From assembly GCA_002426575.1 (NCBI GenBank), contig DIRE01000063.1, forward strand, positions 32,401-78,384: a DNA stretch of 45,984 nucleotides, read 5' to 3'. The DNA comes from Clostridiaceae bacterium UBA5444 (GTDB lineage Bacteria; Bacillota; Clostridia; Clostridiales; Oxobacteraceae). The translations under genes were made by a program, and so were the position numbers. Shown here in pieces: positions 42,644 through 44,818 of the stretch. Under the pieces are notes generated by a model. It ran no database searches. It was not told the origin of the DNA and worked only from the letters and a program-made list of their open reading frames with translations. Numbering within the stretch: position 1 is the stretch's first letter; the number at the start of each line of letters is the position of its first letter.

Positions 42644-42683
42644 AAAAAAAGTTGCGAACTCTAATTTGTACGCAACTTTTTCT
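42644..42683. terminator. Bidirectional rho-independent terminator (A7-agttgcg...cgcaact-T5) overlapping the stop codon of the downstream WYL gene
   Basis: 7-bp stem flanked by an A-run and a T-run, seen directly. Confidence 0.55.
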
Positions 42684-43608
42684 GATTTTCAAGTCTTTCT
42701 TTTATTTTTTTAATAAAACTTTCTGGATAAGTTACTTTAATCATAGGTCCAAAAGATAAAATTCTTATAAGCACCTCGGTTTCATCACTTTTATAATATG
42801 TTAGTTTCGTTTCATAATGGTCATTATCTATTTGTCTTGTTTCTTTTTCATAATTTGCAAAGTGAAGCATACTACGTTCTAAAGCATTCCGTTTATCTGT
42901 AATTTCGAATATTACAAAGCACTTTTGCCTATGAAGCCCTCTGATTTGGCTTTCATCAAATGTGTTCTTCAGTAATACACATCCTTTTATTCTTGCTATG
43001 TTTATTGTAGAAAGTTTATATTTGCCCTGACAAATTAACCGAAACTTATCATCCTTAGGAGAATATTCTAGCTCTCGCGGCGTGTATATATGGTGATGAT
43101 AGTATCCTTTACTGCTTTTAAATTCTATTTCTATTTGCCGCTTTTCCTTAAGAGCACATAAAATAGTTTTAAAAGCACTTATGTATTCGTCACTATCATA
43201 TGGATCCCTATCTTTGTTTATATCAAGGTAGTAAAAATCGCTTTCAGTATAAAGAGGTTCAATATTATCAAGCCCTTCAATATGCTGGCCAAACACTAAA
43301 AAACGTTTGTCTAGAGTAATTGCCTTTAAGTACCGCATCTGTAACTCTGTCAATGGCATAGATGGTTTATTTTTTATTGGAGTATTAAAATCCTTTGTTA
43401 TTACTTGCCATTCCTCATTTTTGATTGCATCTAAAATAAAGACAAAGCTTTCAGAGAAGGCATAGTCATTTATAATGTCAAATGCTGTTTTTTCATTGAG
43501 CTCGCCATCAATGGCTTTATCTATAAGATGGGCAACTGCATTGTAATATGCACTATATACTTCAGAGAATATCATAATTTTAACCTCCATACATATTGAA
43601 AAGCTCAT
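42661..43608 (-). CDS. WYL-domain protein (putative ligand-sensing transcriptional regulator), paralogous partner of the upstream gene
   Basis: WYL-like core EIEFKSSKGYYHHHIYTPRELEYSPKDDKFRLICQG...INIARIKGCVLL. 315 aa. 29-nt overlap with the upstream WYL gene. Confidence 0.55.
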   Translation of the reverse strand: MSFSICMEVKIMIFSEVYSAYYNAVAHLIDKAIDGELNEKTAFDIINDYAFSESFVFILDAIKNEEWQVITKDFNTPIKNKPSMPLTELQMRYLKAITLDKRFLVFGQHIEGLDNIEPLYTESDFYYLDINKDRDPYDSDEYISAFKTILCALKEKRQIEIEFKSSKGYYHHHIYTPRELEYSPKDDKFRLICQGKYKLSTINIARIKGCVLLKNTFDESQIRGLHRQKCFVIFEITDKRNALERSMLHFANYEKETRQIDNDHYETKLTYYKSDETEVLIRILSFGPMIKVTYPESFIKKIKERLENQKKLRTN

Positions 43609-44818
43609 CTAAATCAGAATTAAAAGTATCAACAACTGACCTTTTATCACATTCAAGTGAAATAATTCTGCCTATAAATGTGCGAAGCCAGGGTATCATC
43701 TCTGAAGCGTCATACACGTCAATGTCATATCTATAAGTAGTTTCATCAATCCTTGTAAGTATTCCAAAACGCCCTTCTCTCTCTATTCGATTTACAATGA
43801 ATCTTTCATTGTGAGGAACATTTAGAGTCATTGAAAGGTGCTCAAGATTTCTCCCTTTACCAAAAGATGCACCCCAAGTATGACATAATATTTTGCAAAG
43901 TCTTTCTAAGTATTTATCATACTCCTTGCAATTGCTAATTGGTTTAACTGATTTTATGTAATCAATGCGAAAGTTCATTATATCTTTTGTCCTAAAATCA
44001 TATGCGCTTAAATATCTACGCCCCCCTTGAACACTTATAAGTATTTTAAGGGGAACAACTAAAAGAGTAGTATCACCTCTACTACGGGGTCCATGATTAA
44101 CAATTTGAATTGTTTTTTTCATATGCATAGTTTCAAGCAATTCATATACAATTTCACTTTCAAGTGCATGCATTATATAATTATGCTTGAAAGCAAATAT
44201 ATGATTATCATAATTGCATTTGTCAAGCAGGGTACTTCCTATAATTCCTAGCTCTGAAACTTCACTGAAATATATAAGTGCATCGCAAATACAGTTTAAA
44301 TTTACATCTGAATTGTTGATTGAAAAGAGAAGCTTTTTCCCTTGCTTTTCTTTTTTCAAAATACCTAGTGACACATATTCTAAAAGCTTTTTACGAATAG
44401 TAGAAATATCCGGAATAGTAGGATTTTCAAATGCCTTTAGGTATTCTACAGTAATTATATCTGCGATTTCAGTAGCCGAAAGCAATTTTCCATCAAATAA
44501 TATATCAAGAATTAAAAAATTAAGTGTTATATCATTTTTCGTAAAGCTTTTAGCCTTAAATGCACGGTAAAAAGGATTAGATGGAATATCTGAACTATCA
44601 ACCGATAAGAATACACTTTTACCATTCTCATCTTGTCTAAATGACATAAAATCAGAAAGATAGCTTTCTATACGCCTTTTTTCGTTATCATAGCTGCGAA
44701 GACTTTTTTTATTAAAATCTTCCCTTGATTTAAAACCGTAAACATAAAAGTCACGCATATAATCCCGAATTTTATCAAACTTTTTTATAAGCTCAGAGTA
44801 CTCGCTCAATCCATTCAC
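43580..44818 (-). CDS. WYL-domain transcriptional regulator (N-terminal domain + winged HTH + WYL + C-terminal extension)
   Basis: wHTH LSATEIADII...ISTIRKKLLEYVSLGILKK. Canonical WYL core TTLLVVPLKILISVQGGRRYLSAYDFRTKDIMNFRIDYIKSV. 412 aa. Confidence 0.65.
   Translation of the reverse strand: MNGLSEYSELIKKFDKIRDYMRDFYVYGFKSREDFNKKSLRSYDNEKRRIESYLSDFMSFRQDENGKSVFLSVDSSDIPSNPFYRAFKAKSFTKNDITLNFLILDILFDGKLLSATEIADIITVEYLKAFENPTIPDISTIRKKLLEYVSLGILKKEKQGKKLLFSINNSDVNLNCICDALIYFSEVSELGIIGSTLLDKCNYDNHIFAFKHNYIMHALESEIVYELLETMHMKKTIQIVNHGPRSRGDTTLLVVPLKILISVQGGRRYLSAYDFRTKDIMNFRIDYIKSVKPISNCKEYDKYLERLCKILCHTWGASFGKGRNLEHLSMTLNVPHNERFIVNRIEREGRFGILTRIDETTYRYDIDVYDASEMIPWLRTFIGRIISLECDKRSVVDTFNSDLDELFNMYGG

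Follow-up and report, generated by a model that had tools for sequence, protein, structure and literature searches.

A tandem pair of WYL-domain proteins as a candidate heteromeric regulator of an adjacent RtcB RNA-repair operon in Clostridia

We examined a stretch of 45,984 nucleotides (nt) from Clostridiaceae bacterium UBA5444 (contig DIRE01000063.1, positions 32,401 to 78,384; the whole stretch is referred to below as the window) that carries two adjacent genes for WYL-domain proteins next to an operon encoding the RNA ligase RtcB. Here we describe the two proteins, named WYL_L (large subunit) and WYL_S (small subunit), together with their likely target. Read 5′ to 3′ along the minus strand, the locus consists of an ABC transporter gene, a 412-amino-acid (aa) open reading frame (ORF), a 315-aa ORF, a 470-nt gap, a Band-7/SPFH gene and the RtcB gene. 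In the ORF list the ABC transporter gene (minus strand) has its stop at 44839 and continues past the end of the window; this stop lies 20 nt ahead of the longest ORF of WYL_L (43580-44818, minus strand, GTG start, 412 aa), which is followed by the longest ORF of WYL_S (42661-43608, minus strand, ATG start, 315 aa). Across the gap lie the Band-7/SPFH protein gene (41077-42189, minus strand; Pfam Band_7, 103 bits), the first protein gene of the operon, and the gene for the 3′-phosphate/5′-OH RNA ligase RtcB (39872-41080, minus strand; Pfam RtcB, 215 bits, with NCBIfam RtcB-family matches), the second; the two are contiguous on the same strand.

Sequence context suggests that the longest ORFs begin upstream of the true start codons. 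For WYL_L the start is probably the TTG at 44809 (409 aa), which is in frame, has GAGGCGG ahead of it and corresponds to the MSEYSELIK start of relatives, whose alignment begins at residue 4 of the longest ORF. For WYL_S it is probably the ATG at 43575 (304 aa): a GGAGG lies 8 nt before it, within the final WYL_L codons (Y-G-G-stop), relatives start MLFSEIYSAYY, matching this codon, and gene callers picked the same ATG on identical metagenome contigs. A first-pass annotation of the window had described two adjacent, overlapping genes. Both minus-strand ORFs and their adjacency hold; the 29-nt overlap is a product of longest-ORF calling, and with the likely starts the two window genes would abut with a 4-nt gap instead. 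In relatives, 75 of 78 loci have a WYL_L/WYL_S junction that overlaps by 14, 11 or 1 nt, and a junction that abuts or overlaps in this way points to translational coupling of the two subunits.

WYL_L can be divided into a basic N-terminal extension (residues ~1-93), a predicted winged helix-turn-helix (wHTH; ~94-167), a linker, a WYL domain (221-297) and a WCX domain (298-412). Pfam WYL (PF13280) scores 29.5 bits over residues 224-292 (E 7.7e-7), above its gathering score of 21.8, and this match contains the WYL core peptide VVPLKILISVQGGRRYLSAYDFRTKDIMNFRIDYIKSV that the first-pass annotation had quoted from the large ORF; among relatives of WYL_L, 40 of 42 are matched by the same profile. 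An AlphaFold2 (AF2) model has a mean predicted local distance difference test score (pLDDT) of 69, being confident from residue 221 onwards (80-95 in the C-terminal half) and moderate over residues 100-170. When this model was compared with the PDB by Foldseek, the best 32 matches were all WYL transcription factors (DriD, PafBC 9fnd, CapW, BrxR, WYL1), headed by DriD 8tp8 (E 2e-11), and superposition on the C-terminal domain of DriD (7tzv_M) gave a root-mean-square deviation (rmsd) of 3.6 Å and a TM-score (TMt) of 0.71. The WCX domain of WYL_L is seen by fold only, through this match to the DriD C-terminal domain. In the model, the predicted wHTH comprises helices 94-107, 115-126 and 138-150 followed by a beta hairpin at 154-167 (pLDDT 69-89); Foldseek matches the segment 94-167 to MecI, BlaI and SmtB at E ~1e-2, and T140, R142 and K144 of the predicted recognition helix are invariant. 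The 93 residues ahead of the wHTH are basic and nearly invariant across the family (e.g., RSYDNEKRRIESYL, KSLRSYDNEKRRIESYL and YRAFKAKSFTKND), and neither a search of the N-terminal 100 residues against Pfam nor one of an N-extension profile against the PDB returned a credible match. This extension could be a second DNA-binding module, an RNA polymerase-binding module, or a docking site for the acidic head of WYL_S.

In its 304-aa form, WYL_S consists of an acidic helical N-terminal domain (residues 1-125), a WYL domain (~126-206) whose WYL triad reads FRL, and a WCX domain (207-304). The window protein has no Pfam WYL match, 11 of 42 relatives matching weakly, and its match to Pfam WCX (PF25583) is weak, at 14.3 bits below the cut-off of 23.9; Pfam WCX is matched by 33 of the 42 relatives, with a best E of 2.4e-5. 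A PADLOC WYL model does match the C-terminal 170 residues of WYL_S, covering the WYL and C-terminal domains (E 2.2e-7). The AF2 model of WYL_S (mean pLDDT 87) again returned WYL transcription factors for all of its best 32 PDB matches in Foldseek (PafC, DriD, BrxR, CapW, WYL1), with PafC (9fnd_Y, E 7.6e-9) at the top; against the DriD C-terminal domain (7tzv_M) the rmsd is 3.9 Å and TMt 0.65. The N-terminal domain is modelled as helical without a beta wing, has a net charge of -10, the family median being -7, and matched no HTH profile, nor anything else credible, when searched against Pfam. The first-pass annotation, which saw a WYL-like core in both proteins and no obvious HTH in the smaller one, thus agrees with these results, the core being supported by Pfam in WYL_L and by the PADLOC model and the AF2 fold in WYL_S. 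In the profile searches, WYL_L passes PF13280, WYL_S misses it and falls below threshold for WCX, and no HTH profile matches either protein. NCBIfam has no family for WYL_L or WYL_S.

Single-sequence phmmer searches of the PDB found nothing meaningful for either protein, and BLASTP detected no significant similarity between them (E 0.35). Profile searches of the PDB, built on 42-member alignments of each family, placed WYL regulators at the top for both (BrxR, PafBC, PafB, PafC and 7qfz) at marginal E-values of 0.07-1.7, and for the WYL_S family returned nothing besides WYL regulators. [quoted passage not shown] Being linked by profile-profile comparison and invisible to BLASTP, WYL_L and WYL_S appear to be very old paralogues. 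Both WYL domains are basic (+5 each). According to the alignments, each has kept a different one of the two conserved WYL arginines of PafB/PafC, WYL_L retaining the first alone (FRIDY) and WYL_S the second alone (NIARI). Such complementary loss would be expected if both WYL domains form one composite site.

The two subunits are also inherited together. We assembled a comparative set of 80 species loci, 44 of which have at least 5 kb on both sides of the pair. WYL_S directly follows WYL_L in 78 of the 80, the two exceptions being cut by contig ends, and the identities of the two proteins to their window counterparts co-vary across loci (r = 0.83). A metagenome-scale database holds 4371 relatives of WYL_L and 3611 of WYL_S. 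By analogy with PafBC, we consider it probable that WYL_L and WYL_S form a heteromer. The comparison with PafB/PafC drawn in the first-pass annotation is accordingly borne out as far as a tandem, co-inherited pair of paralogous WYL proteins goes, and breaks down at WYL_S, which has no HTH, unlike PafC.

At least 511 species genomes, mostly of gut and rumen Clostridia, encode a relative of WYL_L, and the 80 loci come mainly from Oscillospiraceae, Anaerovoracaceae, Ruminococcaceae, Lachnospiraceae and Erysipelotrichaceae; the closest named relative, from Aminipila terrae, is 65% identical. Three arrangements recur. In the first, which is that of the window, the pair is followed by a gap of ~0.5 kb, Band-7, RtcB and sometimes RlaP. 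In the second, a gap of 0.5-1.6 kb leads to a DUF2828/DUF7788 protein, which we take to be a Ro-like TROVE scaffold, and then to RtcB. In the third, the repair operon (TROVE or Band-7, RtcB, and often RlaP and a CCA-adding-enzyme-like gene) is divergent from the pair. Among the 44 loci with full flanks, 41 contain at least one of RtcB, Band-7 and TROVE, and 41 contain the promoter motif described below. The neighbours conserved with the pair are RNA-repair genes; upstream, the neighbours vary in every locus inspected (aldolase, NIF3, hypothetical genes).

The second line of evidence for a regulatory link is a DNA element between the pair and the repair genes. In the window it reads GTTCGCAAC TTTTTTT CGATGAT (42637-42659, minus strand) and constitutes a candidate operator or upstream promoter element, with the family consensus GTTCGCAACTTTTTTTCCryGAT. 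A 16-mer from it, GTTCGCAACTTTTTTT, occurs 89 times with at most two mismatches in 1.1 Mb of loci, against a chance expectation of ~0.6 that comes from arithmetic with uniform base composition and not from a shuffle control. The position of the element relative to the promoter is fixed: in 73 of 80 matches to the extended motif GTTCGCAACTTTTTTTCC (71 unique sequences) TAnnnT follows at a distance of exactly 25 nt, and the other seven are accounted for by six copies of the inverted left arm and one copy shifted by one base. Across the promoter the family consensus is tgaGTTCGCAACTTTTTTTCCryGATtttcc-N11-ggTAtnaT, and the corresponding predicted -10 box of the repair-operon promoter in the window is TATGAT (42613-42618, minus strand). 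At the -35 position the window has ATGATA and the family, with a 17-bp spacer, ryGATt, both poor matches to TTGACA; no extended -10 is consistent across the promoter sites. The motif is asymmetric and spans approximately -60 to -30 of the promoter. It is always oriented toward the repair operon, in tandem Band-7, tandem TROVE and divergent arrangements alike, so that it points first at a structured-RNA leader, then at Band-7 or TROVE, and then at RtcB.

In many tandem loci the motif has an inverted partner within the last WYL_S codons (in the window, AAAAAGTTGCG at 42681-42671), and together with its T-run it can there double as the terminator of the WYL genes. We rejected the notion that it is a mere WYL-operon terminator: in 20 divergent loci the longest complementary run was 4.45 nt, against 4.52 nt in shuffles, and conservation was equal. 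Because the motif is conserved equally in divergent loci that have no inverted partner, it is best regarded as a signal at the DNA level. Its asymmetry fits a complex with a single DNA-reading subunit, and we infer that WYL_L binds GTTCGCAAC-T7-CCryGAT. One locus (L081) has a second copy at 10853, between Band-7 and RtcB (TCTCGCAACTTTTTTTCCGTGA, with TAAAAT at the fixed distance), which suggests an additional regulated transcript inside the operon, possibly another non-coding RNA.

Taken with the synteny, this conserved motif facing the operon leads us to conclude with considerable confidence that the WYL pair is a dedicated regulator of the RtcB operon. Of the two targets that the first-pass annotation had offered, control of the downstream region, which it described as resembling non-coding RNA followed by SPFH-rtcB, is thereby strengthened, and control of the upstream ABC exporter is not supported, as upstream neighbours are not conserved and an ABC ATPase stands on that side of the pair in only 5 of the 80 loci.

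The gap between the motif and Band-7 encodes two predicted structured RNAs, both on the minus strand. Leader RNA 1 (42428-42606) contains the T-arm GCAGGTTCGAATCCTGC (42469-42453), a degenerate second T-arm-like hairpin (at ~42516-42502) and a conserved hairpin (42565-42542). Its canonical T-arm, GCAGGUUCGAAUCCUGC, belongs to a motif found in 18 of 19 Band-7-type intergenic regions, and compensatory changes, read by eye from the sequences, are present in both hairpin stems. The Rfam transfer RNA (tRNA) model scores 16.2 bits, below its cut-off of 29, the minimum free energy z-score is -3.26, and the predicted fold departs from the canonical cloverleaf. Leader RNA 1 is probably the ‘band-7-associated tRNA-like RNA’ (b7a-tRNA) predicted by Burroughs & Aravind 2016. 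Leader RNA 2 (42226-42323), just upstream of Band-7, is a hairpin of 97 nt whose internal loop, GGAUACCG, is invariant and whose 3′ end is GCCGC. Of the 27 pairs predicted by RNAalifold, 23 show compensatory double changes. A covariance model detects the hairpin in each of the 21 Band-7-type loci and in no TROVE-type locus; no Rfam family matches it, and it may be a Band-7-specific partner RNA or leader element.

General RNA searches added little to this picture. Rfam returned no match for the whole window at gathering thresholds and, for the intergenic region at permissive thresholds, nothing other than chance-level matches and the 16-bit tRNA match; four related loci at E ≤ 1 yielded nothing but transfer-messenger RNA (tmRNA) and T-arm fragments at the leader element, and ARAGORN found no tRNA in the window. 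In TROVE-type loci (L040, 6404-6584, minus strand; L020, 9649-9816) the leader holds two or three tRNA-like elements scoring 30-45 bits, above the Rfam tRNA cut-off. Some of these TROVE-type elements are bounded by GGCACCAACAGCAA...GGUGCC stems and resemble YrlA-type Y RNAs. A 173-aa ORF runs across both leader RNAs in the window (42171-42692, minus strand), with a counterpart in another locus (L005, 2672-3142), and metagenome gene callers annotate the leader-region ORF as a 156-aa gene; this ORF of 156-173 aa is very likely spurious, lying over two structured RNAs.

Further features of the operon and its surroundings were noted. The start of Band-7 is probably the GTG at 42174 (365 aa), since relatives have 365 aa. 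RtcB is the last operon gene in the window, where it has no RlaP gene (PF10127) after it, in contrast to Aminipila terrae, Dielma fastidiosa and others; past RtcB comes a convergent gene for a 159-aa membrane protein (39384-39863, plus strand). RlaP is itself followed in 8 of the 80 species loci by a CCA-adding-enzyme-like gene (PolyA_pol head, tRNA_NucTran2_2, HD; L040, 1254-2690, minus strand), which extends the operon to TROVE-RtcB-RlaP-CCA or, in one locus (L010), Band-7-RtcB-RlaP-CCA. One TROVE-type locus has a reverse-transcriptase gene immediately downstream of RtcB (L020, 14017-15072; Pfam RVT_1, 72 bits), and in one Bacillota metagenome-assembled genome a tmRNA gene lies ~370 nt upstream of the WYL pair (L008, 6261-6627), probably by coincidence.

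On balance, we favour an explanation in which the pair is a heteromeric transcription factor of the WYL family, dedicated to the RNA-repair operon beside it and activated by broken nucleic acid. WYL_L would provide DNA binding through its wHTH and possibly its basic N-terminal extension as well, and WYL_S would add a second WYL-WCX module together with an acidic N-terminal domain that does not bind DNA. The complex would read the asymmetric GTTCGCAAC-T7-CCryGAT element at a promoter with a good -10 and almost no -35. Single-stranded nucleic acid derived from damage would bind across both basic WYL domains, as single-stranded DNA (ssDNA) does in PafBC, and convert the complex to a state able to recruit RNA polymerase, switching on transcription of the RNA-repair genes. 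The likeliest ligand would be broken RNA, such as tRNA fragments or RNA ends with a cyclic phosphate. For the individual parts of this proposal our confidence differs. We lean toward the pair acting as an activator. That it senses an RNA ligand is a nearly even call, falling slightly on the doubtful side; RNA is favoured by the conserved partners all being RNA-repair components, by the activation of the analogous regulator RtcR through 5′ tRNA halves that end in a cyclic phosphate, and by a prediction from the Aravind laboratory that WYL transcription factors may sense cyclic-phosphate RNAs.

Several observations weigh against this proposal. The wHTH of WYL_L matches no Pfam HTH family, whether the whole protein or the wHTH segment alone is searched, and the 93 residues ahead of it are of low confidence in the AF2 model (pLDDT 35-57). 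The hhalign probability between the two families is just 34%, and the interaction of WYL_L with WYL_S is proposed by analogy with PafBC. The reader of the motif could be another factor or an alternative sigma factor. Activation is deduced from the poor -35 and the motif position alone, while the WYL factors BrxR and CapW are repressors, and in the matched structures the ligands of WYL transcription factors are all ssDNA, with one report of cyclic di-GMP. Finally, three of the loci with full flanks (L062, L073 and L074) carry the pair with neither the motif nor repair genes. A further locus, L072, likewise lacks the motif, RtcB, Band-7 and TROVE in the fetched sequence, which reaches just 1.8 kb downstream. 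In these four the target operon may lie elsewhere in the genome, or the pair may have another target.

The same pair and the same target would also be compatible with the opposite sign of control, a repressor that sits on GTTCGCAAC-T7-CCryGAT and blocks RNA polymerase until a WYL ligand releases the complex. BrxR and CapW are among the structural matches, work from the Aravind laboratory calls HTH-WYL factors negative one-component regulators, and the motif overlies the -35 region, so that a protein bound there could block access of the polymerase. However, a promoter almost without a -35 and with no consistent extended -10 looks activator-dependent, the operator lacks symmetry and is for the most part upstream of -35, and the closest heteromeric match, PafBC, and the best structural match, DriD, are both activators; we regard repression as doubtful. 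Where the ligand is concerned, the pair could instead be a strict DNA-damage sensor of the PafBC/DriD type that binds ssDNA, with the RtcB operon placed within the DNA-damage regulon. The best structural matches (DriD, PafBC, CapW) do bind ssDNA, and the Salmonella rsr-rtcBA operon is induced by DNA damage, but in Salmonella the damage signal arrives at RtcR via tRNA fragments. No conserved DNA-repair gene was found near the pair in the loci examined, whose sole conserved partners are RtcB, Band-7, TROVE, RlaP, the CCA-enzyme gene and tRNA-like RNAs, and we judge a strict DNA-damage sensor unlikely.

Two other possibilities depart further from the proposed activator. The proteins might not be transcription factors at all and might act as RNA-binding accessory factors on the tRNA-like RNAs or on RtcB substrates, in the manner of WYL1 for Cas13d. 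We find this very improbable: WYL1 (6oaw) is among the structural matches, both WYL domains are basic and WYL_S has no DNA-binding domain, yet WYL_L has a predicted wHTH with invariant recognition-helix residues, an invariant motif at a fixed distance from the -10 accompanies the pair in every arrangement, and in tandem loci the WYL genes' own terminator separates them from the repair genes. We give next to no weight to regulation of the upstream ABC exporter or of an anti-phage defence system. The ABC gene of the window does end 20 nt before WYL_L, and PADLOC places its WYL models under CRISPR-associated signalling. Against this, the ABC ATPase and the other upstream neighbours are unconserved, as described above, no copy of the motif was found upstream of the ABC gene within the window, and no PADLOC defence-gene model matched the neighbouring proteins. 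The likeness to defence regulators such as BrxR and CapW, which the first-pass annotation had also raised, therefore does not extend to the genomic setting, which has no conserved defence genes.

Among characterised systems, PafBC, a mycobacterial and actinobacterial activator (PDB 6sj9, 7p5x, 9fnd), is heterodimeric: DNA is bound by one HTH, and ssDNA forms a bridge between the two WYL domains. The WYL pair shares with it tandem paralogous WYL-WCX genes, asymmetric subunit roles, basic WYL domains, PafC as the best PDB match of WYL_S and, if our proposal for DNA reading is right, the use of one HTH on an asymmetric element at a promoter without a normal -35. Unlike the pair, both PafBC subunits have an HTH, that of PafC touching sigma region 4, whereas the head of WYL_S is acidic and not an HTH. 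The PafBC motif lies at -26 (sigma adaptation), whereas that of the pair ends 25 nt before the -10; PafBC has a DNA-repair regulon, whereas the conserved partner of the pair is RNA repair. Sequence similarity between the systems is marginal (E 0.1-1), and WYL_L has an additional conserved extension of 93 residues at its N-terminus. DriD from Caulobacter (PDB 8tp8, 7tzv, 9pfq), the best structural match of WYL_L, has the same wHTH-linker-WYL-WCX order and is a ligand-activated transcription activator, as we propose for the pair; it differs in being a single-gene homodimer with one ssDNA per WYL domain and a DNA-damage regulon, and is only 12-14% identical. BrxR and CapW, repressors of BREX and CBASS, have the same wHTH-WYL-WCX fold and are among the top structural and profile matches, but they are homodimers that bind palindromic operators beside defence genes, none of which was seen for the pair.

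In role, the nearest parallel is RtcR of Proteobacteria, a sensor-regulator activated by broken tRNA (5′ tRNA halves with cyclic phosphate ends) that is encoded beside an operon of tRNA-like or Y RNAs, a Ro scaffold and RtcB (rsr-yrlBA-rtcBA or rtcBA). The two are not homologous: RtcR, composed of CARF, AAA+ and HTH domains, works at sigma-54 promoters, in contrast to a WYL pair with a sigma-70-type -10, and neither Pfam nor NCBIfam gave a match in the pair to the CARF, AAA+ sigma-54-interaction or HTH domains of RtcR. The WYL pair would thus be the functional counterpart of RtcR in Clostridia. The effector genes themselves belong to modules described before. As summarised in bioRxiv 10.1101/312249, the Band-7/b7a-tRNA/RtcB module of Burroughs & Aravind 2016 matches the window operon, and related loci carry a TROVE, tRNA-like RNA, RtcB and RlaP version of the Ro(TROVE)/Y-RNA/RtcB module; the description available there concerns the effector module. 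According to Aravind-laboratory papers, cyclic-phosphate RNAs may be sensed by CARF and WYL transcription factors, and some of these factors regulate RNA repair; the papers cite Burroughs & Aravind 2016 for WYL regulators and regulators of RNA repair.

WYL transcription factors, the PafBC heterodimer and the Band-7/Ro-RtcB modules are therefore already known. Our literature search found no experimental work on a WYL regulator of RtcB, on SPFH-RtcB systems or on this pair. Within the literature accessible to us, we did not find the two-gene family with its HTH-less, acidic-headed subunit, the complementary arginine loss, the 23-nt element or leader RNA 2, part of which may be listed in Burroughs & Aravind 2016. 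For annotation, the gain is a set of corrected gene calls, including that of the likely spurious 156-173-aa ORF in the leader region. The system is experimentally tractable, with a candidate operator of 23 bp, a promoter of fixed geometry and two proteins that are small and soluble.

To our knowledge, control of an RtcB RNA-repair operon has been described only for Proteobacteria, where RtcR senses tRNA fragments. In the loci examined, an unrelated WYL pair takes the position of RtcR, and it provides a second, independent test case for how RNA damage is signalled. The pair also bears on the ligands of WYL domains, which for characterised transcription factors are ssDNA (and cyclic di-GMP in a single report); sensing of cyclic-phosphate RNA has been predicted by the Aravind laboratory, and we found no demonstration of it for a transcription factor in the literature. 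As a tentative proposal, WYL_L and WYL_S may form an obligate heteromer, one of whose subunits no longer has a DNA-binding domain. Their WYL domains may each contribute one half of the canonical arginine pair to a single composite sensor of RNA ends, and the complex may activate, from an asymmetric promoter element with no usable -35, an operon whose first products are tRNA-mimic RNAs. If true, this would make the pair the first WYL transcription factor with damaged RNA as its physiological ligand, and would reveal in Firmicutes an RNA-damage response circuit that evolved independently of the CARF-based RtcR.

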